This document shows positions 21,301 through 64,000 of a stretch of DNA of 64,000 nucleotides, one piece after another. Position numbers and translations under genes: made by a program. Source of the DNA: Sphaerodactylus townsendi (Eukaryota); assembly GCF_021028975.2 (NCBI RefSeq), contig NC_059428.1, positions 42,036,001 through 42,100,000 of the forward strand, written 5' to 3'. A model generated the notes under the pieces. That model was not told the origin of the DNA, searched no databases, and saw only the letters and a program-made list of their open reading frames with translations. The first letter of the stretch is position 1. Each line of letters begins with the position of its first letter.

Positions 21301-24300
21301 AAACTCCCGTTTAGTTCTGCCCTTTGCAGCTGTGCCACTCTCTTCAATACTAGCAGTCGCAACAGTCACTTCGTTTTTTCGGGTATGACGAACAAGGTGA
21401 GCTCGTAATGAGGCACCATACTGGAACTCTTTTTTGCACAGCTAGGACAACAAAAATGTGCATTAGTTTCTCACAGATGGTATAATTATGATCTCAGCAC
21501 AAAGTCACAGAAAAACATAGATACCACCTTTTTGAGTTATTTCCAGGTCTGCAAACACTATGTATGCAAAGGTGAGATTCTGATAGACCAGTGAAATCTG
21601 AAATTCTTAAAGACTATTCAAACTCAGACTAATGCGTATTAATCCACATATAGTACACAAAAGCTATATTTTCCACGTGATACTTCAAGACTGCGTGACC
21701 TATGCAATCATCAAAATGAAGGACTGTAACAAAGTCTTAATGTTTACTTTGGAATTGTTATTTTCTTCTAAGAAGCTAATCTGGGAAAAGACTGAAATAG
21801 ACACCAATCAGATCATCAGAATAAGCAGAGAATCAGAAAGTTTCCTGAAAAGAAAGCCAATGCACCTAACCAAAGAGTACTTCAAGTAATATTGCTAGAC
21901 TACAAACAACCAGATTAACCCAATACTTAAAACAGCAATTATGTAGGGTTGGATACAACCAGCTTCTCTGTTTGAGGGAAAAAAAATATATACTTATCTC
22001 CAAAAAGGCTCTGCCATTAGCTGTGGGACCCATTAATGAAAGAGTGCCACATGGGACACCGCTGCCGTGGGGAAATAAATCAGTTTTGACCACCTCCACC
22101 CCTCTCGAACTACTGGCAGGACCTCAACCCACAGATTAGCAAGATTACAGAAGATGCATCAACTCAGGATGTACTTCAAGCATCAACTCACTCGCATTTG
22201 TAATTTTTCGTCCTTTCATGTTTCAGTGTGTGCATTATAAGGGGCATAACGCCTCTGAAAAACCATTCCACATTCACTACATTTGTGCTGTGCTTCTGCC
22301 TCACTAGGCTCCTACAGGGTCTCTCTTGGGCTGCTTCATCTTTTTGCCTCTTTGCACTAACTTCATGGCAACCTAGTTAGAAAATAAGGTGTTAGCTGCT
22401 AGTTCAAATGAACACCCAATGATAAAATCAGTGACACAAAGACAGTATCAAAAAAAGCTGTTTGCATGACATAAGACATCATGAGAAACCAAAGAGAAGA
22501 TAACCTACTAGCAGTATTTCTTATACCTGTTGAATGGCTGATTTGTTGGCCGACTTTCTGTTCTGCAGTTTTTTCTCAATGCCCTTGTGCAACTTGATAT
22601 AGCCACCTTCGCTGACAGACCGTTGGCGAAGCTTGCTTTTGTAAGTGTCATCTTGACTGGAAACGGAGGTCTGTGACTGAGGCAGTGGAGCACTTTGTGT
22701 TTTACATGGCCTACCGCGTTTTCGCTTAAGTCCTTCCTGGGAATCTTCAGCAGCAGCATCTGCAGTTAATTCACTGCTTACGTTTTGTTCGCTGCTCACA
22801 TTTTTATCAGCCTCACTTTCTGCTGGCATGCTGACAACTTCTTGTTCTGTTGCTGGAGCCTCAGACTGCTCCACAGATACACTCTGATCTGTGATGCCTT
22901 CCTCCGTTGGTGTTTTTACATTACTTTCAGTTGTTTCTATATCAGTAGAATGCACCACAGACTTTGGAGAATTGTCCACAGGGGGTTCTGGTATAGTTTG
23001 CAGGACAGCCTCTGCTTGTGTCACCTCGTCCAATTTCAGTGCTTGAATATGCTCCATTCACAGTTGTGACTTCATTGTCTGTGGGTGAAGGCTGCTCAGT
23101 GCTGTCTGCAGGGTTTGCCCCATTTTCAGTCTGCTCTAAAAGATTCTGAGCTACTTCAACTACCTGAACATCCCCTTTCTGATACAATCGTGATTTGTTT
23201 GTCTTCCATTTGTTTGTGCAATATTTTCACAGATTTCTAGGACTTCACATGAAGAGATGTCGAGCCAGCACTGCCACTTCTCTGCCATGTTACAAAAAAT
23301 CAAAAAAAGTCACTCCTTGAGGTATAAGCAAATTCCAATAAAGGGAGAAAGCTGGCCTTGCAAAACCCTGCACCAAATAAGAAATAAGATGTCAGAAGAG
23401 TTGGCAGAGATGATCCCCCAGTTTAATTTAAAATGAATGAGAGTTTTTACTAGAAAATTACTGCCTGCAGCAACAATTTCAAACTATAGGCACAAGACAA
23501 GAGTATCTTGCTTCAAACAAACAAGAAAAATGAAGAGGGCTTAGAAGCTACAGCTGAAGGATTCCAGAAACCAGGGTCTGTGTGCAGTGGTGGCAGCAAC
23601 TGTGCACACACTGTGGAAATCCTTCATTGCACCGTACCAGCCTTCTGAAGCTATAATAGCCAGTTTTCACTTCTAGTAAAATTGAGACCTCTCTCTTCTT
23701 TTGGAAGCACTTACAAGCAGAAACAGCGGTTTTTTACATGTTTGTAGCCTCATGGAGGCATGCGTGGGAACCAATCTTTGCTCTAAAGCAAAACATAATT
23801 CCCCAAGTCTAAATATATAAAATGTAGGAAACTCTACTGCAGTACATCGTATGAAACCATCTTTGTATTACGTGCAACTTTATTTTGGAAAACGTGAGTC
23901 AGTGTTTCGATAATTATCTAGAGTTGGTTGTACAACAGCTGAAAAAGACACTATATTTCCATTCTCATTGGGTCAGCTTGTGCAATTACCACTTGTTCAA
24001 TGTAAGCAAAAGACACAGGAACTATAGCTGTGGCAGCTGCCAATTGCATGATTTGGTAACAGGCTCTCAACATTACAACTCGCATGATTGAGAAACACTT
24101 TTTCCCTCAGACCGGCGGAGAGCCTGGTCCAGAGCTAGGCAGAGTTTATATTCCTTCTACTGTAACTCCAGGAGATTTCCATAAATTCAGATGAAGCATG
24201 TGACAAGTCAGTAATCTAAATCAATACAGTTTAATTACATATTATTAAGGGCAACAACCTGCACTCAGCAAAGTCTGAAGGCTTCCTGCTGTCTATGAAG

Positions 24301-27300
24301 GCCTCATCAAGCGTCAGTAGCTCTTCCACTAAAGGAAGTTAAACTGGAGGAAGGCTGGAGGGAGGATTCAAACCTGGCTGAGTGGAGAGGCAGGATACAG
24401 GCTAGTAGAGAAAATTTGTTCAAATAAAGCACATTCCTACTTTAAACTTGGTCGATGTAACTGGAGAGGACAAGGACAAAAACAAGCCAAACGGCCAACA
24501 ATCTCAGCTCTGCTAGGAAAAAAATAATTCACAAGCTTTAAAAAAAAATACAGCAAGAAGTTGTCCACCACTTATATTTGATCAAACACTCTTTGAACAT
24601 ACTTATTCAATGAACTGATTTTCCTTATGGTTTTTGCCAGAAGATTTTACCTGAAAGATCCACGACAGCTTCGTGACTGGAAACAGCTCCTTTTTCGACG
24701 AAGAGTTCCCTGAAGTACTCGCTATTAGCTGCCAAAACGGATTTGTGCGCTTTGTACACTTCTCCTTCAATGAGCAAAGTGACGTCACAAAATTGACTGG
24801 AAAGCCGCTGTTGGTTCAGCTGGTTCAAGACCGACTGAGAATGCTTTGAAGAAGTCTGTTTCACCAGGCCTTTGCTATCCACCTGGCATTTAAAACAAAA
24901 TGCAACAAGCAGCACGTTAACTTTCAACAAACTGTTTAAAATGTTTGCAATAAATAGCTAGGAAATAAGTTTCCTTCCCAGGACTACATTTTGCATTCAG
25001 CATGGGCCACAGATTAGATTTAGCCTAAATTTTCGAGTCATGCAAGATACAAACAGAATTCCTGCTGCCCCAGCGCAGCCATGGATCTTCCTGAAATGCT
25101 GCTCCAGGGGGACATGGGACAGTCAGCGGCAGAATGGGAGGCAAACTGGGGGAGTCAGCAGCAGAAAGATAGGAGTCAGTGGAAACTACCCCATTTCTTA
25201 TGTTTGTGGAAATTTCACTTACTCCGCCCACCAGATTTAAAATTTTGTTAGCTACTCAGAGAAGGATGAAAATAAAGCTTTGTGTTTGTGCCACAGAATG
25301 AATTTATTTTGACTTATTTTAAATTTGTTTCTTTAAGGGAATAAAAAAATAAAAATCCAAACTAACCCCCTGTACAAGATATCCTAAATGCAACTTACAA
25401 ATACAAGCTCATGTTTGGCTATTGGCTTCTTTTTCACAGGCTTTGGTGAGGCAACTGGGAGCGAGGCAGAATTACTTAATTCATCATCTGTTTCATTGCT
25501 GTCTTCAGGCAATGCTGTGTCTAATCCAAGCTCTTCCAACATTTCAGAAGGATCTGACAAGGATCTGGAACGATCTAATTTTTCTTGGCACTTGCTACAT
25601 TCTTTAATGTAATCTTTGACTTGCTTTAGAATACCTAAGGAAATGCATAAAAAATCTTTTGAATTTTTGACTTCACTTACACAGGAAAGGATGGCTTTGT
25701 TCATCGTCTTTCAGGTATCTTCAGCAATAAATCAGGCAACCTAATTTGTCTTTCATGTAGATGATTAGTATTCTACAGAAAAAACTTAACTTGCGAGAGA
25801 TAACACTATTTTCCTTCATGACAAGTGCCTTTTAAAGCAAAGGAGTGTACTGCATAGTGCCTTTAAAATCTTTGCAATAATCAGGGGCGTATCTACAGAA
25901 AATGGAGCCCAGGGAAAGATCTTAAATTGCACACACGCAGTGGTGGGATGCAAATAATTTAACAACCAGTTCTGAAAGGACTCAGTGGAGGGATTACAAC
26001 CAGTTCTCCGAGCTTGACAAAAAATTAGCTACCGGTTCTACCAAACTGGTGCAAACAGGCTGAATCCCACCACTGTGCACCCCCCGCAAACATCTGACAC
26101 CTATCATTTACGTAACTACTATAATATTAGCTGCACCTTCTTTGTACCTTAGAAATTAAATGCATCATAGTAATATCCACCTAAGCAATGTCCTAATCAG
26201 TACTGAAACCATTAATGAAAGGACCCCACTCCTTAACAACTCACTTTAAAAACATATTAAAAATTACAATATTTTTAAAATTAAAAAGCACATTCCAGTA
26301 AACTATAAAGTGTAAAACAAGAACTGAAGCCTTTTAGCAAAAACAGTTGATAATTTATAATAAATTAATGAATGAGAAGGTAACTGCATCGCCCCACTCT
26401 TTAAAGGTGTGTGCACCACCACCTGCTGGAAGGTAAGAGCAACTATCCACTCTCTCAAAGAGGCCATCACTGTCTCCAGGACCCAGTCAGACATCCCCCC
26501 ACCCCTGCCCCCGGCAATATTCAAGTAACTAGGAGAATGACTTCAAATTGGTACAGGTGCAAGAGACTTTATTTGCAAAGTGCTGAATGAATAGGTCATA
26601 GCAGGCCACCAATAGTGCCAACTCCAGCATGGGAAATTCTTGGAGATTTGGAAGTGGAATCTATAAAGTGTGGAGTTTGGAAGAGTGGATCAAGCTCAGA
26701 AAGGATGTATTACCACAGCCATTTTCTCCAGGGGAACTCATATCTGCAGTATAGAAATAAATTGTAATTCTAGGAGATCTGGAAGCACCCCCTTCCCCCA
26801 AGGTTGGCAACTTTACAGTCAACTTCCTCCCACAGACAAGATCTCAGTAAGTCCCTGGGTAGTGCTTGTTTGATGTTGCTGGCCTGCCAGCACAGTGCGC
26901 ACACACTCGCTCAGTGGCCCCTGCTTCCTCTTCCTTAGCTTCTAATCTGGAGAACTGGGTTTGATTCCCTACTCCTCCACCTGAGTGGCAGAGGCTTATC
27001 TGGTGAACCAGATGTGTTTCCGCACTCCTACATTCCTGCTGGGTGACCTTGGGCTAATCACAGTTCTTCAGAACTCTCTCAGTTCCACCTGCCTCACAAG
27101 GTGTCTGTTGTATTGTCGAAGGCTTTCACGGCCGGAATCACTTGGGTGCTGTGTGGTTTCCGGGCTGTATGGCCGTGTTCTAGCAGCATTCTCTCCTGAC
27201 GTTTCGCCTGCATCTGTGGCTGGCATCTTCAGAGGATCATCCTGAGAATAGTAATGCATTAATAGTTTCTCACAGATGGTATAATTATGATCTCAGCACA

Positions 27301-30300
27301 AAGTCACAGAAAAACATAGATACCACCTTTTTGAGTTATTTCCAGGTCTGCAAACACTATGTATGCAAAGGTGAGATTCTGATAGACCAGTGAAATCTGA
27401 AATTCTTAAAGACTATTCAAACTCAGACTAATGCGTATTAATCCACATATAGTACACAAAAGCTATATTTTCCACGTGATACTTCAAGACTGCGTGACCT
27501 ATGCGATCATCAAAATGAAGGACTGTAACAAAGTCTTAATGTTTACTTTGGAATTGTTATTTTCTTCTAAGAAGCTAATCTGGGAAAAGACTGAAATAGA
27601 CACCAATCAGATCATCAGAATAAGCAGAGAATCAGAAAGTTTCCTGAAAAGAAAGCCAATGCACCTAACCAAAGAGTACTTCAAGTAATATTGCTAGACT
27701 ACAAACAACCAGATTAACCCAATACTTAAAACAGCAATTATGCAGGGTTGGATACAACCAGCTTCTCTGCTTGAGGGAAAAATATATTTTTATCTCCAAA
27801 AAGGCTCTGCCACAGGCTGTGGGACCCACACGGAAAGAGTGCCACATGGGACACAGCTGCAGTGGGGAAATAAATCAGTTTTGATCACCTCCACCCCCGG
27901 AACTACTGGCAGGACCTCAACCCACAGATTAGCAAGATTACAGAAGATGCATCAACTCAGGATGTACTTCAAGATCAACTCACTGGGCATTTGTAATTTT
28001 TCGTCCTTTCATGTTTCAGTGTGTGCATTATAAGGGCATAACGTCTCTGAAAAACCATTCCACATTCACTACATTTGTGCTGTGCTTCTGGCTCATTGTG
28101 CTCCACAGGGTCTCTCTTGGGCTGCTTCATCTTTTTGCCTCTTTGCACTAACTTCATGGCAACCTAGTTAGAAAATAAGGTGTTAGCTGCTAGTTCAAAT
28201 GAACACCCAATGATAAAATCAGTGACACAAAGACAGTATCAAAAAAAGCTGTTTGCATGACATAAGACATCATGAGAAACCAAAGAGAAGATAACCTACT
28301 AGCAGTATTTCTTATACCTGTTGAATGGCTGATTTGTTGGCCGACTTTCTGTTCTGCAGTTTTTTCTCAATGCCCTTGTGCAACTTGATATAGCCACCTT
28401 CGCTGACAGACCGTTGGCGAAGCTTGCTTTTGTAAGTGTCATCTTGACTGGAAACGGAGGTCTGTGACTGAGGCAGTGGAGCACTTTGTGTTTTACATGG
28501 CCTACCGCGTTTTCGCTTAAGTCCTTCCTGGGAATCTTCAGCAGCAGCATCTGCAGTTAATTCACTGCTTACGTTTTGTTCGCTGCTCACATTTTTATCA
28601 GCCTCACTTTCTGCTGGCATGCTGACAACTTCTTGTTCTGTTGCTGGAGCCTCAGACTGCTCCACAGATACACTCTGATCAGTGATGCCTTCCTCCGTTG
28701 GTGTTTTTACATTACTTTCAGTTGTTTCTATATCAGTAGAATGCACCACAGACTTTGGAGAATTGTCCACAGGGGGTTCTGGTATAGTTTGCAGGACAGC
28801 CTCTGGCGCAGTCACCTCGTCCACTTCAGTGCTTGAATATGCTCCATTCACAGTTGTGACTTCATTGTCTGTGGGTGAAGGCTGCTCAGTGCTGTCTGCA
28901 GGGTTTGCCCCATTTTCAGTCTGCTCTAAAAGATTCTGAGCTACTTCAACTACCTGAACATCCCCTTTCTGATACACCGTGATTTGTTTGTCTTCCATTT
29001 GTTTGTGCACATTTTCACAGATTTCTAGGACTTCCGTCATGAAGAGATGTCGAGCCAGCACTGCCACTTCTGCCATGTTACAAAAATCAAAAGTCAATTC
29101 TGAGGTATAAGCAAATTCCAATAAAGGGAGAAAGCTGGCCTTGCAAAACCCTGCACCAAATAAGAAATAAGATGTCAGAAGAGTTGGCAGAGATGATCCC
29201 CCAGTTTAATTTAAAACGAATGAGAGTTTTTACTAGAAAATTACTGCCTGCAGCAACAATTTCAAACTATAGGCACAAGACAAGAGTATCTTGCTTCAAA
29301 CAAACAAGAAAAATGAAGAGGGCTTAGAAGCTACAGCTGAAGGATTCCAGAAACCAGGGTCTGTGTGCAGGTGGTGGCAGCAACTGTGCACACACTGTGG
29401 AAATCACATTGCACTTGAAGCCTTCTGAAGCTATAATAGCCAGTTTTCACTTCTAGTAAAATTGAGACCTCTCTCTTCTTTTGGAAGCACTTACAAGCAG
29501 AAACAGCGGTTTTTTACATGTTTGTAGCCTCATGGAGGCATGCGTGGGAACCAATCTTTGCTCTAAAGCAAAACATAATTCCCCAAGTCTAAATATATAA
29601 AATGTAGGAAACTCTACTGCAGTACATCGTATGAAACCATCTTTGTATTACGTGCAACTTTATTTTGGAAAACGTGAGTCAGTGTTTCGATAATTATCTA
29701 GAGTTGGTTGTACAACAGCTGAAAAAGACACTATATTTCCATTCTCATTGGGTCAGCTTGTGCAATTACCACTTGTTCAATGTAAGCAAAAGACACAGGA
29801 ACTATAGCTGTGGCAGCTGCCAATTGCATGATTTGGTAACAGGCTCTCAACATTACAACTCGCATGATTGAGAAACACTTTTCCCTCAGACGGTGAGCCT
29901 GGTCCAGAGCTGCAAACAGAGTTTCTTATATATTCCTTCTACTGTAACTCCAGGAGATTTCCATAAATTCAGATGAAGCATGTGACAAGTCAGTAATCTA
30001 AATCAATACAGTTTAATTACATATTATTAAGGGCAACAACCTGCACTCAGCAAAGTTTGAAGGCTTCCTGCTGTCTATGAAGGCCTCATCAAGCGTCAGT
30101 AGCTCTTCCACTAAAGGAAGTTAAACTGGAGGAAGGCTGGAGGGAGGATTCAAACCTGGCTGAGTGGAGAGGCAGGATACAGGCTAGTAGAAAATTTGTT
30201 CAAATAAAGCACATTCCTACTTTAAGCTTGGTGATGTAACTGGAGGACAAGGACAAAAAAAACAAACAAGCCAAACTGACCAACAATCTCAGCTCTGCTA

Positions 30301-33300
30301 GGAAAAAATAATTCACAAGCTTTAAAAAAAAAATACAGCAAGAAGTTGTCCACCACTTATATTTGATCAAACACTCTTTGAACATACTTATTCAATGAAC
30401 TGATTTTCCTTATGGTTTTGCCAGAAGATTTTACCTGAAAGATCCACGACAGCTCGTGACTGGAAACAGCTCCTTTTTTCGAAGAGTTCCCTGAAGTACT
30501 AAGCTATTAGCTGCCAAAAGCAGTTTGTACACTTCTCCTTCAATGAGCAAAGTAGCGTCACAAAATTGACTGGAAAGCAGCTGTTGGTTCAGCTGGTTCA
30601 AGACCGACTGAGAATGCTTTGAAGAAGTCTGTTTCACCAGGCCTTTGCTATCCACCTGGCATTTAAAAACAAAATGCAACAAGCAGCACGTTAACTTTCA
30701 ACAAACTGTTTAAAATGTTTTGCAATAAATAGCTAGGAAATAAGTTTCCTTCCCAGGACTACATTTGCATTCAGCATGGGCCACAGATTAGATTTAGCCT
30801 AAATTTTGAGTCATGCAAGATACAAACAGAATTCCTGCTGCCCCAGCATGTGCCATGGATCTTCCTGAAATGCTGCTCCAGGGGACATGGGACAGTCAGC
30901 GGCAGAATGGGAGGCAAACTGGGGAGTCAGCAGCAGAAAGATAGGAGTCAGTGGAAACTACCCCATTTCTTATGTTTGTGGAAATTTCACTTACTCCATG
31001 CACCAGATTTAAAATTTTGTTAGCTACTCAGAGAAGGATGAAAATAAAGCTTTGTGTTTTGTGCCACAGAATGAATTTATTTTGACTTATTTTAAATTTG
31101 TTTCTTTAAAGGGAATAAAATAAAAATCCAAACTAACCCCTGTACAAGATATCCTAAATGCAACTTACAAAATACAAGCTCATGTTTGGCTATTGGCTTC
31201 TTTTCACAGGCTTTGGTGAGGCAACTGGGAGCCGAGGAGCAGAATTACTTAATTCATCATCTGTTTCATTGCTGTCTTCAGGCAATGCTGTGTCTAATCC
31301 AAGCTCTTCCAACATTTCAGAAGGATCTGACAAGGATCTGGAGCGATCTAATTTTTTCTTGGCACTTGCTACATTCTTTAATGTAATCTTTGACTTGCTT
31401 TAGAATACCTAAGGAAATGCATAAAAATCTTTTGAATTTTTGACTTCACTTACACAGGAAAGGATGAAGCTTTGTTCATCGTCTTTCAGGTATCTTCAGC
31501 AATAAATCAGGCAACCTAATTTGTCTTTCATGTAGATGATTAGTATTCTACAGAAAAACTTAACTAGAGATAACACTATTTTCCTTCATGACAAGTGCCT
31601 TTTAAAAGCAAGGAATTGTACTGCATAGTGCCTTTAAAATCTTTGCAATAATCAGAAGTATCTACAGAAAATGGAGCCCAGGGAAAGATCTTAAATTGCA
31701 CACCGCAGTGGTGGGATGCAAATAATTTAACAACCAGTTCTGAAAAGGACTCAGTGGAGGGATTACAACCAGTTCTCCGAGCTTGACAAAAAATTAGCTA
31801 CCGGTTCTACCAAACTGGTGCAAACAGGCTGAATCCACCACTGTGCACCCCATGAAACATCTGACACCTATCATTTACGTAACTACTATAATATTAGCTG
31901 CACCTTCTTTGTACCTTAGAAATTAAATGCATCATAGTAATATCCACCTAAGCAATGTCCTAATCAGTACTGAAACCATTAATGAAAGGACCCCCACTCC
32001 TTAACAACTCACTTTAAAAACATATTAAAAATTACAATATTTTTTTAAAATTAAAAGCACATTCCAGTAAACTATAAAGTGTAAAACAAGAACTGAAGCC
32101 TTTTAGCAAAACAGTTGATAATTTATAATAAATTAATGAATGAGAAGGTAACTGCATAAGCCCCTCTTTAAAGGTGTGTGCACCACCACCTGCTGGAAGG
32201 TAAGAGCAACTATCCACTCTCTCAAAGAGGCCATCACTGTCTCAGGACCCAGTCAGACATCCCCCACCCCTGCCCGGCAATATTCAAGTAACTAGGAGAA
32301 TGACTTCAAATTGGTACAGGTGCAAGAGACTTTATTTGCAAAGTGCTGAATGAATAGGTCATAGCAGGCCACCAATAGTGCCAACTCCAGCATGGGAAAT
32401 TCTTGGAGATTTGGAAGTGGAATCTATAAAGTGTGGAGTTTGGAAGAGTGGATCAAGCTCAGAAAGGATGTATTACCACAGCCATTTTTCCAGGGGAACT
32501 CATATCTGCAGTATAGAAATAGAATTGTAATTCTAGGAGATCTGGAAGCACCCCTTCCCCAAGGTTGGCAACTTTACAGTCAACTTCCTCCCACAGACAA
32601 GATCTCAGTAAGTCCCTGGGTAGTGCTTGTTTGATGTTGCTGGCCTGCCAGCACGAGTGGCCACACTTTCGCTCAGTGGCCCCTGCTTCCCTCTTCCTTA
32701 GCTTCTAATCCTGGAGAACTGGGTTTGATTCCCCACTCCTCCACCTGAGTAGCGGAGGCTTATCTGGTGAATCAGATGTGTTTCCGACCTCCTACATTCC
32801 TGCTGGGTGACCTTGGGCTAATCACAGTTCTTCGGAAATCTCTCAGTTCCACCTGCCTCACAAGGTGTCTGTTGTATTGTCGAAGGCTTTCCGGCCCGGA
32901 ATCACTTGGGTGCTGTGTGGTTTCGGGCTGTATGGCCGTGTTCTGGCAACATTCTCTCCTGGCGTTTCGCCTGCATCTGTGGCTGGCATCTTCAGAGGAT
33001 CATCCTGATGCTCTGAAGATGCCAGCCACAGATGCAGGCGAAACGTCAGGAGAGAATGCTGCTAGAACACGGCCATACAGCCCGGAAACCACACAGCACC
33101 CAAGGTGTCTGTTGTGGGGAGAGAAAGGGAAAGGAGCTTGTAAGCCACTTTGTGTCTCCTCACAGGAGAGAAAGGTAGGATATAAATCCAAACTCTTCTT
33201 CCTCTTCTTCCTGGCCTACATGGGGGTGGGGGGGAGAGGGAGGGAGAGAGGCGCCTGAGGGCTGTGGATCACCCCACCTGTCTTTCTTCCTCGCCACCAG

Positions 33301-36300
33301 CCTGCCTGCACATGCACTCTCATTCACCACCAGCCCCCACTTCCTTCTCCTGGCCTGGGGGAAGAATGCAGGTTGGGCAAATGCGCCTCCCACCTGACTG
33401 AGGCGAATGGTGCCTGGGTCGCATAACCCCCACCCACCCCAAGATACGCCCCTGGTAATAATAGATTTGCAGTCAATTTTTTATTCCAACTAAGGCTGGC
33501 AAGTACAACTTTACAAAAAGGCAAGTCTTACTAATAGCTGTCCAGAGCAATATAAATGCTCTCCCACCCCCACCCCCCACCCCCAGGTCTATGTTTAACA
33601 GTGCAGACAATAATGGTTTTGGTAGAGGCAGCACTTAAATAAGATTCTCTAATGCAAAAGAGAATCTGAACTATTTTCAGCAGTAGAAACATGCAGCTGT
33701 AACTTCTGCCACAGGCCGCCGCACTGTCATCTTTCCTTGAGACAGAGCATACCTATTTTTACTTGCAGAAAGGATGGTTGGATCCAAGCTCAAATACATA
33801 TCTTTTGTGGTATAAACAAAGACTAAAATATAAAGATGCGATGAACAGAAAATAATAGCCAGCTACTTTTTGTGAAACAGAGTAGATAATGACTCAGCTT
33901 TCCATTAGAAAATGGAACAAAAAAACGAGTGCCAAGACTTTCCTACAGACATCTCTACATAGCTTAGCCAGCATGAGAAATCCATGCATTCAATCCTGCA
34001 CCCCGGAAATTGTAATTGTCCCTCTATGTTAGCAGATGTGTCATATCATGGCAATCATGCACAAAGCGTTAAGAAACTTGCAGAATTTCTATAAAACACA
34101 GAATTTCCCTTTTGGGGGTTCTGCTAGTCTCTTGTTGAATCAGCAGAACAGAAAGCTCTTTGATAACACTTTGATTAGGCCACTTTCTAAATCCCATTCT
34201 CATTTGAGCAGAAAACTGTCTACTTGCTGGAGCTTGTCCATTTTACTGTTTGAACAAGGACAAATCTTGGCCTGTACGCCTTGAACATATTTGTAACTGA
34301 TACCTGCTTTTACAACCTCCGCCAAATCATCAGCTGCGACTGTGTCTAGAAAACAATAACTTATTCCATGTGAAATAAAAAAGGCTTTGCCAATGCTATT
34401 TTGAACCTATTGACTATGGGCTGGCCATCTTTTCCCTTGACCCTTATTACAGACTTCTAAAAACCAACACCCAGAGAAGGTAAGGTAATATAGAAACACC
34501 TCACTCTCCCCACCCCATAATAACAATTTAATAGATTTCACCAGAGCACTGTCTATTTCTTTGACACACATGCTCAGCTGCTCTACAATATCTACATTTA
34601 TTTATTCATTAAAAGTATTTATATCCTACCTTTGTATAACCATATTCAAGGTGGTTTAGGAAGTGAAATAAAATGGAATAAAATCAAGAACAATAAAACC
34701 AAATGAAATACAATAAAACACATTAAAATCATATTATACCATTTAAAAGTCACTAAAAAACCCTACAAAACCTAAAATGCTTCTTGCTAAAATCTAGATG
34801 TTAAAAGCTGCTGGATGTTAACAGCTAGATACCGGTAATTTAGATGTTAAAAACTAAATAAATAAGCCTTCACCTGACAACAGGAGAGCAAGGAAGGAGG
34901 ACACCAGAATTCTGTAGGAAGAGAATTCCAAAGTCTGGGTACCACCACCAAGAAGGCTCTCTCCCAGGTCCCCACCAGATGTACAGGTGGGATGGAGAGA
35001 TAGCCTTCTCTGGATGATCTTAGTAACCAGGCAGATTTGTATGGAAATAGGCGGTCCTTCAGGTAACCTGCCTCAAAGCTGTGGAGGTTTTATAGGCAAT
35101 AATCAGCACTTTAAATTGGGCTCAAAAGATTACTGGTAGCCAGTGCAATAGTTGTAGTAAAGGGGACACATGGTCCCTATACCTGGCTCCTGTCAGCAGT
35201 CTAGCTGTTGCATTTTATATGAGCTGAATACTCTTCAGAGATAGTCCTACGTAGAGTACATTAAAATAATCCAAATGGGACATGACTAAGGCATTTGTTA
35301 TAGTAGTTAGATTCAACAGTTCAAGGTAGGGACGTACTTGGCGTATAAACTGTAGACAGGAAAATGCATTTCTGGCTATCGCCAAGACCCTATTTAGAAG
35401 CACTCCCAAACCACAGACCTGTGTCTTCAAGTGGTATGCAACCCCATCCAAGTCTGGTAACCATTCCATTCCCTAGTTTGTCTTAAAAACAACCAGTAAC
35501 ACATCTGACTTGTCTGAATTAAACTTCAGTTTAATTAAACTTCAGTTTAATTCAGTCTGAATTAAACTTCACTCAGATCGTTACCAATCCCAGGCACTGG
35601 TTGAGGATTTCCACAGCCTCCCTAGCTTGCAATGAAAGTCAGAGGTAGAGCTGGGTGTCATACTGCTCCTCAAAACTCCAGATAACCTCTCCCACCAGTC
35701 TCATATAGATGTTAAGTACCTTTTTTTTTGGGGGGGGGGGAGTAGAATGGAACCCTAAGGGACACCACACATTAATGGCTAAGGTGTTGAACAGGCATCC
35801 TGCAGCCTCTGAAAATGGCCTGCCAGAAAGGACTGGAACTACTGTAATACAGTGCCTCCAAGACCTAGTCTGACCAGGCAGATCAGAAGGAAAACTTGGT
35901 CAACGGTATCAAAGGTCGCTGAGAGGTCCAGCCTAACCAACGGGGACACACTTCCCTTGTCTAGCTCCTGGCGCAGGTCATCCACTAGGGCAAACAAGGC
36001 TGTTTCTGTCCCCCACGTAGGTCTGAAGACACATTGAAATGGATCCAGAATATCTGCATCATCCAGAAATCCCTGGGTGGCTATCAACCAACCTGCCCAA
36101 ATACAGAATATTGGAGTCTGATCAATAGTTTACTAAAAGAGTGGGGTCCAAGGAGGACAGTCTCTCCTCTTCACAGTCTGGCATCTGAGGGATACATGGT
36201 GCTGAATCCTTGCCACTTCAGAGATGACTGTTTTTTTTTTTATTTTCAAACATGCTAGTAGAGGCACAAAAAGGACCTGTGTGCTAGCTGACTCTGACAG

Positions 36301-40793: not shown

Positions 40794-46208
<5,415 letters not shown>

Positions 46209-46519: not shown

Positions 46520-57128
<10,609 letters not shown>

Positions 57129-57331
57129 GTAAGAACTGCATATCTCAACCATAGCAAATGAGTCATTCTCTAGGTACCTTTTTCAGAGAGATCAAAATAA
57201 AGCTGAAAGAGAAGCACAAATAGCTATCACTGCAGTTTTTAGTTTCATATTTATATCCATAAATAGGAGGGGGAGCTGTGTATACGCACTGGCACAAAAC
57301 AGATGCCAGCTGTAAAATTCCAAAAAGAAGA

Positions 57332-57807
57332 TGTAGTCGTGACCGCGAGGTCAGCGCAAGAATGAGACGAGACCGCTTCGAATGAGACGAGACTGGTGGA
57401 GAGTGCCAGCAGCGGGAGCGCGGGTGTCCGTGTTCCTAGCGACTCTCCCGCGTGCTGGTTCCTGGCACCTTTTATTATGATTCTAACGGGGGCGTGTAGA
57501 AGGGCGGAACGGGGGGGATTCCGGGAGAGCGGGAGAGCGGGAGACTGAGAGATCATCATGTGATGCATGATCTCATCTGGCTGCTACGTGCGGAGAGGAG
57601 CATCAGCGTCTGGGCCTAATCCTCACCTGGGGGCAAGACCATTGTCCCTTTGTCCGGGACACCCGGTGGTTGTGAGCCAGGTAGTTCATGACCTGTGACT
57701 CATCGGGGGATGAGGGGTGTAGGCGCGGTGCGACCAGAAGGCCGTAGGAGCGCCGGTGTGCCAGCGCTCTACTTACGGTGCTGCTGGGTCAGCAGTGCAT
57801 CCCTACA
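57332..57807 (-). repeat. ERV 3' LTR (476 bp)
   Basis: TGTAG...CTACA termini; preceded on the minus strand by polypurine tract AAAAAAGGAGGAGA (~57808-57821). Confidence 0.95.
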
Positions 57808-57825
57808 TCTCCTCCTTTTTTACAT

Positions 57826-59357
57826 TTAGAAGGGAGGCCGAAATGCTAGGGGGCGATTTAAGGGGACGCTCGTCTCCTCCGCCGTTTGGCCAAGCTGGCC
57901 GAGCTGCTTGTGCAACATTAGAACTTGGTTGCGATGTAAGGGAAAGTCGAGGGGTTTCTTACACATGTTACAGGCAATATTAGGTATACATTGAATGAAA
58001 CAAGATCCGACGATGAGGCACACAATCAAACCAATGCAGAGCTGTACAATAACACTTAACCATCCCCCCAGTAGCCAGCTCCAAAGGGCTGACCACCAGT
58101 GGGGCAAAACGTCATACTTCAGATTAGATACAACATCTTGCAGTTCACGCACTTTCATATGAATCAAATGGGAATTATCAGAAAGATTAAAACAACACAT
58201 ATCATGTACATTCTCACAACCTTGGTGATGCAATAACAACAACTAATCAATAGCGATTATCTAAAGTCGCTTGACAAAGTTCCTGCTGCTCGGAGGCCAG
58301 AGCATCCAGAGCAATGGAGGTGGAGTTGATGGACTTCACAAGGGCACAGGCCAGCCAGCCAATGGTCTTAGCGTTGTAAGAAGCGAGTCCGGGGACTCCC
58401 ACTAGGGAAGTCGCGAGGGAGACGAACTCCGCTTCGGAGAGGGCAACCGCGTTGCTCCGGCAAGAGGGGTCGAGGGGCAGAGTGGAGCGGCGGCGACGGC
58501 GTCCGGGCTCCCAGGGTGGAGCCTGAGGCAGGACGATGGTGAGGCGGCTAAGGCAACAGAGAGTCCCGGCAGAAAGCCGAGCAGGAATGTAGTTGAAAGT
58601 TCTCTCCCCGCAAGTCCAGAACCAACCCTTGGGGAGCAAGATATTTCCATACATGGGGGGAATGTCCTCCATGCGCATGCAGTTCCAGTTGGCCGAGCCG
58701 GTGAATGGGCCCGGGTCAGTCTCTCGTCTTGCCGCGCCGGCAATGCGGGCGCAAGTATTGGACTTGTGATTGGCGACAGTCTTGGTGATGAGGGAGAGAG
58801 CGCCAGCCGGGAGGGTTTGGACTACGGGTCCCCAGTCAGCACTCATAGAGTACTTGATGGATGAAGCATTCATAAAGGGGCTTAAACCAGACTCCGCTAG
58901 GAAGTCTCCAGGGGCTTTGCAGACGGGGAGCAGGCAGGAGCTTAGCAGGCTCCCGACTCCTAGGTATTGGCCCAGGCAGAAGGACGAAACGTTGGCAGCG
59001 GCAGCAAATTGCTTCCAGATGTTGGTTTGGTCAAAGCTCGTCAGGGGGTGGCCGACTGCCACTGGCAGGAGGCAGCAGAGCAGGCAAAGGATGGTGGCCG
59101 CCGAGTTGGCAGTGATGATTGCAAAGAGGGCGGCACAGAGGTTCTCGGGCGTCTCGGGCTTGCTGGCGCAGCAGCTCTTGAGCTTGGCTGGCGGTTGCTT
59201 TGACATTCCCCCAGGTCATCCGGGTCCTTGGACCGTCTGGGCGTCGGTGGCGGCGTTCCCGTTGAGGCCGCTGGACGGGATCCTCCAGAGAGATGCGTTC
59301 CATCTCCGGGATGGGGTTGTTTTCCTCCTGGTGCCATTCCATGGGCTGGCCCGTCAT
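57826..59357 (-). pseudogene. env: ERV env, ASLV(alpha)-type SU/TM with long signal peptide; two lesions (~59160, ~58250)
   Basis: NIWKQFA...SFCL...SCLLPV, LPKGWFWTCGERTFNYIP, furin RRRRRS, internal fusion loop, LACALVKSINST, ISD remnant ATLDNR, CENVHDMCC (CX6CC), membrane span. Confidence 0.88.
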
Positions 59358-60430
59358 GGCGAGTCGGGATCTACTGGAGATCTGTAGGAAGAAGGACTGA
59401 AACACACCCCCTTCCCCAGGTTATAGGAGGGGGCCGGATCCTGCCAGGCTTGGAGAGCCGATGGCGGGAGGTCAAAATCAAGTTTTGTTGGATTTAGTGT
59501 TTGATATAAGACGACTATATACGAAGGCTTATCTTGCAGCCTGCGTAAGGGTTGCTTCTAATGCAGTCTACTGGGGGCCGCCCACTCCTCTTTCTTTAAA
59601 TTGTTTGACAGGAAGGGCAGAGGGTAGGCGATCCTGATGGAAGCTGGCTTCAGAGCGTCATCAGGGTGCGTCAAAGCGAGGGTCCGAGCCTCGAGGGAGG
59701 AGGGGGCAAGCGGACCCTGGGGGAATTGTGGGTATGCATGCTAAATTTGCAACACAAAAGAGGGCTTGGATGCGCTTTTGGGTGGTGGATGCATCCAGGA
59801 GACAAAGCAATTAGGCGATTAGGGGTGAATTTCACACACAAAAGGGGGAGGGGGTATTTCTTTGCAGGGAAAATATACTTACCGTGACCTTGGTGGTTAA
59901 CGCCGAGAGGCTGGAAATGGTGCTGAATTTGTAATCAAATTATCTTGGGGAATTGCCACCCGCCGAAACCGCTCCTTAAGGGGCGGCTTCGGCCAAGCGC
60001 CTGGCCTTGCACACTGTGTTCATACAGCCGCCAGGCGCTGGGCAACCACAACCCACACAGGTTATGTGTGAATTTGGTGCGGCAGCATCCCCTTGACTAG
60101 AGGCCTGCCCTGGCCGCCGAAACCATTCCTTAAGGGGCGGTTTCGGCTAAGCGCCCTGGCGATGGTAGCCACAAGCCAAACAGGTTTGTTAGGGGCATAG
60201 TGGCGGCAGCCTCCTTTTTAAACTGGGGCCTGTCCTGGCAGTGCTGCGGTACCAGGACGGGCCCAGATTTTAATCCAGGGAGGGCCAGTCAGCCAATTGG
60301 CCCTCCCGCTTTGCTGGTTGAAAAAATAGAGGGAAGAGAGAAGGAAAAAAAGGGGGGGAATAGTTTCCTTGCGGAAGTTCGAAAATGAGTTCAGAAGGCA
60401 CAATTAGGATCAATAATCTGTGTGATGGGT

Positions 60431-61203
60431 TTATCCATCCCAGACTAGGGTCGTTTTGACCTGGCTCATGAGATCCCTTCCCCAGAGATTGACATGGATG
60501 TCCAGAATGATGGGGCGGACTGTGAGCTGCCGCTCGAGCCCTGGGCTATGGACCGTGAGCGGGCGGATGCTCCGTCTTACGGTTTGTTTTCCCCCCACCC
60601 CCCAGATGTGCGGACAGGTCTCGGTTGGCCACTGGTCAGGCCACTCGGCTGCTCTGATGACGGTCACATCAGCACCGGTGTCCACCAGGCCCTTGAACAG
60701 ACACCCCTCCACGGTGAGCTCCAGATATGGGCGGGAGCTTCCGATGGGTGTCTCCACCGCTGCGATGGTAGTACTGGCTGCGCCCTGATGGCTGCCGGGG
60801 CTTGTGGCCTTTATTGCGTTGATGGCGGGCAGCGCATGGGGCAGGAGGATCAGCTGTGCGCAGCTGGTTCCGCTGGGCAACTCCTGCGGGATGTTCGTCC
60901 AGACTTGGAGATGGATGGGTCCCTGGTGCGTGGAGTCGATTACTCCGGGGACGATGAACAATTCCTGTTCAGCGGCGGAGGCCTTTGGCAGCACCAGCCC
61001 AATGGTCCCGGTAGGGATGGGGTCGCCATACTGGGTTGGGGCGACGAGGACCTCGTGGGGGAACTTGAAGGAGATGGGCTGGGTGCACGTGAGCGAGATG
61101 CCACGAGAGGGGGTGGTTTGGGTGTGGGTCTTGGTGTTTGGGCCTGTTCTAGTACTCTCCTCCTTGGTCCTGGGCTGGGGAGATGCCCGGGCGCAAGTTT
61201 CCC
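60431..61203 (-). pseudogene. pro: ERV pro: degenerate dUTPase-like domain plus aspartic protease
   Basis: PGVIDSTHQG and CAQLIL (dUTPase motifs 3/4), LVDTGADVTVI and LWGRDLM (protease); slippery GGGAAAC at 61197-61203. Confidence 0.88.
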
Positions 61204-62676
61204 GATGGGCAGTCGCTTCTCCAGTGGAAGCCTCTCTGGCACCGGGGGCATCGGGTTTTTGGCAGCCTCGGGGGCCTTCGTCTCTTGGGGGAAGACCCTC
61301 CTCCATCGGGATTGTAGGCCCCCCCGCCGGGCTGCCTACACTCCCTCCGGAAGTGTCCTGACCTGCCGCAATTAAAGCAATCATCCTGGGGCTGTCCCCT
61401 GGCGGTGGAGAGTGCTGCGGCGAGAAGGCTAGCTTGGTGGGCGGAGGATCCGATGTCCTGGCAAGCCTTAAGCATGTCGGTCAGTTCAGGATCTTTGCCT
61501 AGGCCCGTCATTGCTCTGCGGCACTCAGTGGAGGCGTTCTCCTTGGCGAGGCGCATGAGGAGCTCGTTTTGGGCCTCCTCGCTATCTACCTGCCTCTTGA
61601 GAGCCTCCTGGAGCCTGTTCACAAATTCAGCGTAGGGCTCTTGGGGTTTTTGCCGGATGGCGGAGAAACTTTGGGTTGGCTGGCCGGCATTGGGAACCTT
61701 GATAAACGCCTTGTAGGCGCATTCAGAGGCGACCGTAAGGGTGGCCTCTGGCAGAACAATCTGATCGTTGGGGTTGGCGAAGGCATCAAAGCCGTAAAGT
61801 TGCGCGGCGGTGTAGGCGCCGCCCGATGGCGGCTCCCCTAGAGACATTGCTGGCGGAACTCGCTTTCCTAGATCACATATTGTGCAGGGCTCAAAAGCAT
61901 GCGAAGGTGGTCTTCCAGTCATCCGGAACCATTAGGTGATTCCTTGCGACTGCCTCTAGCATGCCTCTCACATAGGGCTGGTGACTCCTACGTCTCGCAT
62001 CGCTTTGCGGAGCTCGGTGAGGATGTTATAGCCTAAAGGGCGGTACTCGACAACCTGCCGAATAACGCCATCCTCCCCTCGGTATCCGTGAAGTGAACGG
62101 GGCATAGAGCGAGGATATCGGCATCGTCTTCCGTCAGGGTTTCCTTTTTTCGCAGGTCGTGGCTAATACGTTCTGCGAGGGTTTTGAAACCCGCGCCATT
62201 ACGTGGCGCTGACGGAGGTGCTATGGCTTCAGAAAATGAAGGCGGAGCAAGGGGAGGCGGCCGAGCCGCGGGAGAATTTGAGGGAGGCAGGGGAGCAAGG
62301 GGGGCAGAAGGAGGACAGGCGTCCAATTTAGAGGATAGAGAAAATTCCAGGGGTGAAACTGAAGTTGAAAGATCGAAAGGAGGGCGGCCTACAGCAAGGG
62401 AGCCATAGGTCTGCAGGCTGATGGCGACATAGCATTGTCTCCACGTCAGTAGCAGTGACACCGGCGCGCGAGGCTCTGTGTGAAGAGTGCGCCCGATGTT
62501 TTCCCAATCCTTAAGATTCAATGTCCCCCCCCCTCCGGGTACCATGGACATTGAGCTTCAATCTCCTCAACCAATTTGCGCAGCTCCCCTCTCTTTACGG
62601 GCACCCTGCCGCGTTTCGCTAACGCTTTTAGTTCGTTAACGTGCTTGTCATAACCCCTGCTTTTGCAAGCTCCCAT
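61149..62676 (-). pseudogene. gag: ERV gag (several 1-nt frameshifts)
   Basis: MGACKS myristoylation start, CPWYPEGGTLNLKDWENIG matrix, two PSAP late motifs, MHR IRQKPQEPYAEFVNRL, two CCHC knuckles CFNCGRSGHFRREC and CPRCQRGFHWRSDC. Confidence 0.9.
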
Positions 62677-62847
62677 ACTTACCGGTGTTCCGTCGGACGA
62701 GAGAGTGTCCTAGGACTCGGGTCCCTGGATGTGCTGATCCAGCGGACGGGCGATACCAAAGGTAAGTCCCTGGATGCGACGATCCAGCGGACGTCGGTAC
62801 CGCGGCCCTTTCCCAGGCGACGGTAAGCAGGGTGGAGGTTCGAGGAT

Positions 62848-62865
62848 TCCCGGGTTTCGGCACCA
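62848..62865 (-). promoter_or_regulatory. Primer-binding site complementary to tRNA-Phe(GAA)
   Basis: Minus strand TGGTGCCGAAACCCGGGA, the complement of the vertebrate tRNA-Phe 3' 18 nt, 3 nt inside the 5' LTR. Confidence 0.92.
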
Positions 62866-62868
62866 GCT

Positions 62869-63338
62869 TGTAGTCGTGACCGCGAGGTCAGCGCAAGAAC
62901 GAGACGAGACGCGGTGATAACATCTGGTGGAGAGTGCCAGCAGCGGGAGCGCGAGTGTCCGTGTTCCTAGCGACTCTCCCGCGTGCTGGTTTCTGGCACC
63001 TTTTATTATGATTCTAACGGGGGCGTGTAGAAGGGCGGAACGGGGGGAATTCCGGGAGAGGGGGAGAGCGGGAGACTGAGAGATCATCATGTGATGCATG
63101 ATCTCATCTGGCTGCTACGTGCGGAGAGGAGCATCAGCGTCTGGGCCTAATCCTCACCTGGGGGCAAGACCATTGTCCCTTTGTCCGGGACACCCGGTGG
63201 TTGTGAGCCAGGTAGTTCATGACCTGTGACTCATCGGGGGATGAGGGGTGGGGGCGTGGTGCGACCAGAAGGCCGTAGGAGCGCCGGTGTGCCAGCGCTC
63301 TACTTACGGTGCTGCTGGGTCAGCAGTGCATCCCTACA
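62869..63338 (-). repeat. ERV 5' LTR (470 bp)
   Basis: TGTAG...CTACA termini; direct repeat of 57332-57807. Confidence 0.95.
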
Positions 63339-64000
63339 AGAAGATATGTTTAGGGGATATTAAAAGTGGTTTTCCCAGAAGACTCAGGGTCATTCTGTCA
63401 GACAGATGCAATTTCTATAATTAAAATATAAAGTTCCTTTCCATATAGGTGCATATCCTAATCCTTATCTAACTCTCATAATTATCCCAATTAATGGTGT
63501 GTCCTTACAAAACCCTGTTTAAGTTGATCCCTTTGGGGATGAGGCGGCCTATAAGTTTCATTAATAAATAAAAATAAATAAAATAAATAAATCCCAAATA
63601 TCCACATATTTTGATGCCTCTTTTCCAGGTTAAACAGTGATATCAATTTGTGCATTTGAGCTGTGGTCCGTGATTGTTTTATGGATCAGATATATTTACA
63701 TTCAGTTAATATTGTTAGAGCTAAGAGTTTTAGAATAGTTTGTGTTGTATGATCACAATGGCCATTTTTCCCATTAAGTAATGGCACATCCTTGATAGGC
63801 AACTGTCAAGAATATTTTGATTATATGTTGCTCTCTGTTAGGGCATGTAGTTGGGTTAGGTCTGGGAATCAGTTTATGTTAACATTTGTAGCGGTAGCTT
63901 GCTATCTGTGCACCTGTGACATTGTGTAGCTTTGAGGAATGCAGAGCAGCTGATAGCAGATTTAAAAACCAGAAATCAAAGGAGAGCCATGAGTGCAGGT

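Follow-up and report, generated by a model that had tools for sequence, protein, structure and literature searches.

How could an endogenous retrovirus (ERV) with a decayed polymerase gene have been inserted in recent times? This question is raised by a provirus of 6,007 nt that lies on the minus strand (63338 to 57332) of a 64-kb stretch of Sphaerodactylus townsendi DNA (contig NC_059428.1, positions 42,036,001 to 42,100,000). This whole stretch is called the window below; all positions are those of the window, and all provirus features are on its minus strand. The stop codon of the protease gene, pro (60431), is separated from the ATG of the envelope gene, env (59357), by 1,073 nt, in agreement with the spacing of ~1.07 kb given in a preliminary description of this locus. 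Our analysis points, with better than even but far from complete confidence, to a helper-dependent class II (beta-like) ERV lineage which has an env like that of avian sarcoma and leukosis viruses (ASLV) and a long-dead pol. The anatomy of the provirus, the ordered remnants of pol, and their erosion relative to the long terminal repeats (LTRs) and the other genes were all observed directly.

Eroded pol between pro and env

On the alignments, we read the interval between pro and env as a collapsed, eroded pol, in which putative remnants of reverse transcriptase (RT) and then of integrase (IN) follow in order. The erosion sets in right past the pro stop and extends as far as the env splice acceptor. 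Frameshift-aware alignment placed an eroded RT remnant at 59950..60392. It starts in the −1 frame of pro and covers the fingers and palm short of YxDD, with matches that follow the order of RT between about 60392 and 59950. The reference was one bird class II RT model, against which this heavily eroded remnant scored above controls. Over the whole interval the RT score was reached by none of 200 and none of 100 shuffled sequences at two gap settings, and the plus strand of the interval gave no RT signal above shuffles. For the RT sub-interval, none of 300 shuffles and none of 236 tiles of real sequence reached the score at either gap setting.

The IN remnant, found by the same type of alignment with one turtle integrase as the reference, spans 59345..59826. 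Here 2 of 100 shuffles reached the score over the whole interval, and none of 200 shuffles or 222 real-sequence tiles did so for the IN sub-interval at either gap setting. Both sub-intervals were chosen after the whole interval had been looked at. Strict gap costs reduce the IN alignment to 17 residues at 59446-59395, a piece of the C-terminal domain (WQDPAP/ITWGRG).

The preliminary description had stated that RT and RNase H are missing and that an integrase remnant is the only visible trace of pol. No Y[MVIL]DD motif is present in the six frames of the provirus, no Pfam family of RT, RNase H or integrase was found among its 17 open reading frames (ORFs), and a search for an RNase H/connection remnant did not rise above controls (score reached by 85/100 and 67/100 shuffles). 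The statement therefore holds for YxDD, for RNase H and for the integrase piece at 59446-59395, but a faint RT remnant does lie 5′ of the integrase remnant. Of the fainter integrase traces that had been mentioned, the GIPxNPQG-like one was not seen in the frameshift-aware alignment, and LKK-/TLN-like residues were placed under relaxed gap costs only.

Structure and age of the provirus

Sequence inspection revealed two LTRs with TG..CA ends, one of 470 nt at the 5′ end (62869..63338) and one of 476 nt at the 3′ end (57332..57807). The provirus is flanked at both ends by a 6-bp target-site duplication (TSD), TCTTCT (5′ copy, 63339..63344; 3′ copy, 57326..57331). The primer binding site (PBS; 62848..62865) begins 3 nt past the LTR and is complementary to the 3′ end of tRNA-Phe; all of its 18 nt match the start of the tRNA-Phe 3′ oligonucleotide printed in PMC2063832. 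A polypurine tract (PPT) is found at 57808..57821. The two LTRs, TSD, PBS and PPT are those of an integrated provirus.

Between the LTRs there are 7 substitutions over the first 415 nt without gaps and 1 over the last 40 nt, a divergence of 1.7-1.8%. In U5 there is one block in which they are unlike, with 15 nt in the 5′ LTR and 21 nt in the 3′ LTR, the latter containing a 14-nt direct repeat. The ratio of observed to expected CpG is 0.84-0.86 in the LTRs, compared with 0.21-0.31 in the flanking host DNA. Because the LTRs are only 1.7% apart, the TSD, PBS and PPT are intact, and the LTR CpG level is above that of the host, the insertion is young in relative terms, as the preliminary description had proposed.

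Timing of pol loss

Alignment revealed a two-copy tandem duplication in the RT remnant (59945..60215), with units of ~120-150 nt that are 82% identical and each end in a hairpin. The two copies differ at 18 of 99 columns, whereas the LTRs differ at 8 of about 445 (Fisher p 5e-9). Such a duplication would be incompatible with a working RT. As it is 18% diverged and the LTRs 1.7%, the data support a death of pol that preceded the integration of this copy by about ten LTR-divergences. This indicates that RT and integrase were supplied in trans; no functional RT or IN was present at insertion, as expected of a non-autonomous, trans-complemented ERV. Early decay of pol and supply in trans, both proposed before, are thus supported.

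The erosion of pol goes far beyond that of the other genes. For gag, pro and env, the alignments with relatives cover the full length, at 39-48% identity. Between turtle and bat models integrase (48%) is better conserved than pro (38%), as is normal, and in this provirus the order is reversed. At LTR-level divergence about one stop would be expected in the structural genes, and one to two were seen. On this reading of the sequence, gag, pro and env would have been whole or nearly so at integration. The CpG ratio is 0.56-0.59 in the dead pol, 0.63 in pro and 0.68 in env. Since the dead pol resembles pro and env in this respect and not the host DNA, its decay during repeated reverse transcription is favoured over a long dormancy in a methylated genome.

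Structural genes and classification

The gag gene (61149..62676; Pfam and frameshift-aware alignment) encodes a matrix of beta type (MA), a capsid (CA) and two zinc knuckles, as in class II/betaretrovirus-like ERVs. Its product begins with a myristoylation-like MG...S and has two PSAP motifs. A Pfam search over the 17 ORFs gave Gag_p10, Gag_p24_C, zf-CCHC, dUTPase and RVP above the cut-off, with Gag_p24 and zf-CCHC_5 just under it on broken pieces of gag. The frameshift-aware alignments were made with four Gag and two Env references. Gag is 44-48% identical to three unnamed full-length Gags and 39% to a turtle model; one unnamed full-length Gag, closer than the turtle protein, reaches 57% over CA and nucleocapsid (NC). 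A splice-donor-like site lies just 5′ of the gag ATG (62677..62683; consensus match only). There is a slippery heptamer in the gag frame at 61197..61203, and pro lies outside its −1 frame, so there is an extra break or a read error between the heptamer and about 61120.

The pro gene (60431..61120; Pfam and alignment) is unbroken and encodes a degenerate dUTPase domain followed by an aspartic protease. It keeps the DTG, flap and GRD motifs of the protease, shows zero frameshifts in the frameshift-aware alignment, and ends at the position of the stop in the turtle protein. Seven of its 11 matches were sea-turtle ERV gene models (40-44% identity). At 61120-60800 the dUTPase catalytic motifs are eroded despite the open frame; they are also degenerate in one unnamed relative (P0048) and canonical in the turtle and stork proteins. 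A separate pro ORF with a dUTPase domain upstream of the protease is found in class II/betaretrovirus-like ERVs.

The env gene (57826..59357; alignment and motifs) encodes an Arg-rich leader, a surface subunit (SU), a furin site (58501-58487) and a transmembrane subunit (TM) with a CX6CC motif (58218-58192). Among the best 8000 candidates scored, all nine Env matches were sea-turtle models (44-47% identity), and homology to the turtle protein begins at the second ATG (59342); in the frameshift-aware alignment, identity to turtle Env is 46%. The long Arg-rich leader presumably resembles leaders of Rec/Rem type; it gave no Pfam match. A splice-acceptor-like site for env lies at 59382..59400, and the turtle models splice at the equivalent position. 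The best PDB matches of TM were ASLV TM (E 0.002-0.003). A T-rich block in TM (57958..58277) differs in codon usage, T standing in place of C mostly at third positions (40 T:16 C compared with 60:141, p 3e-8), with the reading frame conserved; it was probably recombined in from an ERV of other codon bias. CX6CC is a mark of gamma-type Env, alpharetroviruses included (PMC9967133).

With CX6CC in its TM, the provirus lacks the B-type Env of the genus Betaretrovirus. It also differs from the genus Alpharetrovirus, in which the protease is in the gag frame and there is no dUTPase: it has a separate pro frame with dUTPase, and only its Env is alpha-like. By its sequence, it is best classed as a class II backbone with an alpha-like (ASLV-like) envelope.

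Explanations for the dead pol

A helper-dependent lineage would have arisen as follows. An ancestor of the provirus would have lost pol function. Its RNA would still have been packaged, and then copied into DNA and inserted with the RT and IN of a related virus or ERV that had pol and shared the cell. Retroviral RT and IN enter particles as the helper's Gag-Pro-Pol. Over many rounds pol would have shrunk to about 1.1 kb, gained the duplication and eroded, and meanwhile the LTRs, PBS, PPT and splice sites, together with gag, pro and env, would have stayed nearly whole. These three genes may have been preserved because they were useful for the element's own particles, or may have been refreshed by recombination with the helper. 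The present copy would have integrated fairly recently and then gathered a few breaks, some of them perhaps read errors. We infer the helper, the repeated rounds of copying and the reason for the preservation of gag-pro-env from the observed layout.

A number of results weigh against a long-lived helper-dependent lineage. No further copy, solo LTR or helper was found in the 64-kb window, so that the reading is built on a single locus. A single reference protein was behind each of the RT and IN remnants, an unrelated tile came close at strict costs with a score of 56 against 57, and the initial 230 nt of the interval are weak on their own (score reached by 10/200 shuffles). Pfam returned no family for 12 translations of the interval with stops read as X, PDB sequences gave no match to it in 3 frames, and tblastn on the interval was not significant (E 0.059 for the RT piece, 1.8 for the IN piece). 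The CpG interval of the dead pol is wide (0.34-0.88). As assembled, gag has 5-6 frameshifts, depending on the reference, and one stop, and env has two frameshifts, near 59160 and 58250, the second with a stop beside it. Finally, the TM block of env and the U5 block show that pieces have been taken up by recombination, and the dead pol could be one of them.

This last point leads to the strongest alternative, a one-off recent recombinant, which we regard as possible though rather doubtful. A competent young virus would have taken a decayed pol by template switching from the co-packaged RNA of an old, dead relative, and the product would have been inserted in trans, once or on a few occasions; gag, pro and env would look good only through their youth. 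The mosaic nature of the genome, with its TM block and its unlike U5 block, fits this course, and co-packaging and recombination of competent and defective elements have been documented for cattle ERVK (PMC10924933) and canid ERV-Fc (PMC6407205). An old genomic fossil should, however, be depleted of CpG like the host DNA, which the interval is not, and each of the two junctions would have had to lie at most a few tens of bases from the pro stop or the env acceptor.

The state of the frames also bears on the quality of the assembly. The preliminary description had called the gag, protease and env motifs crisp and had taken the element to be still encoding structural proteins. The motifs are indeed clear, but the gag and env frames are broken as assembled, and the sequence in this form does not bear out the second claim. 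Some of the gag and env breaks may be read errors: the gag breaks lie mostly within 260 nt (about 62080-61820), where amino-acid identity is 45-80%, and such clustering at high identity fits a noisy patch. That all breaks are read errors is not supported, as the LTR pair, pro and the SU part of env are far cleaner than a noisy near-duplicate elsewhere in the window, only one break lies in a long homopolymer, and one break is a stop.

That near-duplicate speaks for a deletion of pol after insertion or a misassembly, an explanation which we consider highly improbable. It has 91 gap events and 63 mismatches over 5.8 kb, and at its gap rate about 7 one-nt gaps would be expected in the LTR pair, which has none (P 0.0008). 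Nor would a misassembly leave remnants of RT and IN in their proper sequence and place and on the proper strand. After a deletion, the ends of pol should be well conserved, whereas here both are eroded, with a duplication between them that is 18% diverged; we looked for a clean deletion of an undiverged pol and found an eroded interval instead.

Equally remote is a provirus of old age that decayed where it stands, its gag-pro-env kept by selection in the host and its LTRs made alike by gene conversion: an eroded pol beside preserved genes is the usual pattern of captured retroviral genes, and capture of alpha-like env has been reported in lizards and bats (PMC13568524), but the TSD is perfect, the PBS matches at 18/18 nt, the gag and env frames are broken, and CpG is high across the element including both LTRs.

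Comparison with known systems

The closest named proteins are those of sea-turtle class II ERVs (Caretta caretta and Lepidochelys spp.; P0001, P0012-P0026), a family which can also be described as a class II backbone with an alpha-like Env. Its members resemble the provirus in pro, Env and Gag at the identities given above, and share the long Env leader and the CX6CC TM. They differ in having members with RNase H and integrase and in their canonical dUTPase motifs. Because these relatives include pol-bearing members, the loss of pol is taken as derived. Pol-bearing relatives were seen in turtles only, and the turtle family is too distant to be the helper. The idea that the turtle relatives are themselves pol-less, based on the lack of RT/IN domains in all nine Env models, was refuted by RNase H and integrase in 2 of 12 turtle pro models; the models splice past pol. 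In sea-turtle genomes this is a young multi-copy class II family with alpha-like Env, represented by unnamed gene models, and no paper on it was found in the literature searched. Alpha-like env is widespread in saurian genomes (PMC13568524).

The preliminary description had set the provirus apart from known defective ERVs, a contrast that was overstated, as two systems are similar. Chicken EAV-HP (ev/J) has lost the whole of pol, keeps partial gag and env, and is believed to spread with a helper (PMC12523071, PMC4607243). It resembles the provirus in its missing pol, its retained gag and env sequence and its alpha-type env. In EAV-HP parts of gag and env are lost and the gap is described as resulting from deletion of a pol which a related bird has kept intact, whereas the provirus has full-length gag, pro and env, an eroded pol remnant, a beta-like backbone, a dUTPase domain and a Phe PBS. 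In cattle, the D-type elements of ERVK[2-1-LTR] have a 6.2-kb centre replaced by 2.7 kb that is poorly alignable; they lack any intact ORF and account for 85% of copies, and competent copies mobilise them (PMC10924933). Like the provirus they are beta-like, about 6-7 kb long, with young LTRs, and recombine with competent copies. They have partial gag and env and a beta-type env, whereas the provirus has lost only pol, with pro unbroken and an env of gamma/alpha type. Canid CfERV-Fc1(a) also spread by trans-complementation, with frameshifts and stops inherited in young copies (PMC6407205). Unlike the provirus, it is gammaretroviral, with a large deletion shared in env and an uneroded pol.

The pol-less, trans-complemented lifestyle is therefore already known. 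The novelty is that only pol has been lost, and that its loss is very old in comparison with gag, pro and env, which are full-length. In the part of the literature that was covered, no description of this provirus family or of a pol-eroded lineage with selected gag-pro-env was found, which weighs little as a sign of absence; PMC10152393 and PMC6523648 contained nothing on the subject.

Satellite viruses have their own capsid and use the replicase of a helper. If gag-pro-env of the provirus were functional, the division of labour would be the same. The gag and env frames of the provirus are not open as assembled, and it differs from satellite viruses in being derived from the helper's own kind by gene loss, like defective genomes.

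Other features of the dead pol and of the neighbourhood

A second splice-donor-like site lies in the dead pol at 59877..59883 (consensus match only). Together with a pyrimidine tract ending in CAG (60360-60313), it flanks ~430 nt of dead pol that include both hairpins and a Kozak-like ATG near 60197. By consensus resemblance only, an additional exon could be formed from this stretch. The hairpins share a 9-nt match with the PBS that was at chance level (149/2000 shuffles), and the fold at 60220-59900 (z −5.0) was not accepted as evidence of function, since the duplicated palindromic unit inflates z. In Rfam, no match was found over 57000-64000 at E up to 1, hence no export element or ribozyme of a described kind.

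The provirus lies about 20 kb upstream of a host gene in the same orientation (15332-37733, minus strand), which has an Integrase_H2C2-like N-terminal exon, a BTB domain and C2H2 fingers, and which we take to resemble ZBTB11. The near-duplicate mentioned above (21464-27245 and 27263-33008, in tandem, 96% identical) covers an exon of a BTB/zinc-finger gene, and a host exon in it is shortened from 297 to 178 codons. Many of its gaps are in homopolymers, and it has palindromic ends near 32905-33104; it looks like a read or assembly artefact. Nested inverted repeats resembling miniature inverted-repeat transposable elements (MITEs), typical of host repeats, are present at 50230-51562, 43219-43591, 846-1228, 54546-54710 and 55867-56090. 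On the plus strand, a weak match to an RT N-terminus at 33438-33584 (tblastn E 0.078, several stops) is probably due to chance.

Significance

As a rule, a defective ERV that spreads in trans has lost env or its entire coding capacity. Here a single sequence contains an internal clock, in which pol appears dead long before integration and gag, pro and env have aged hardly beyond the LTRs. A further, tentative proposal, which we think could be true but do not expect to be, is that of a long-lived retrovirus resembling a satellite virus. It would have no RT or IN, would be selected to make its own Gag, protease and envelope, and would borrow only the polymerase polyprotein of a helper, the dead pol serving as a carrier of cis signals (the duplicated hairpin and the new splice sites). 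If so, such lineages would escape RT-based ERV screens.

If the provirus is a one-off recombinant, it would be an unremarkable defective provirus from a class II group of reptiles that has been little studied. If other copies share its layout and signs of selection on gag, pro and env, it would follow that a retrovirus can persist while outsourcing its enzymes alone, cis-preference in retroviral packaging would become testable from genome data, and surveys baited with RT would undercount the active ERV lineages of reptiles.

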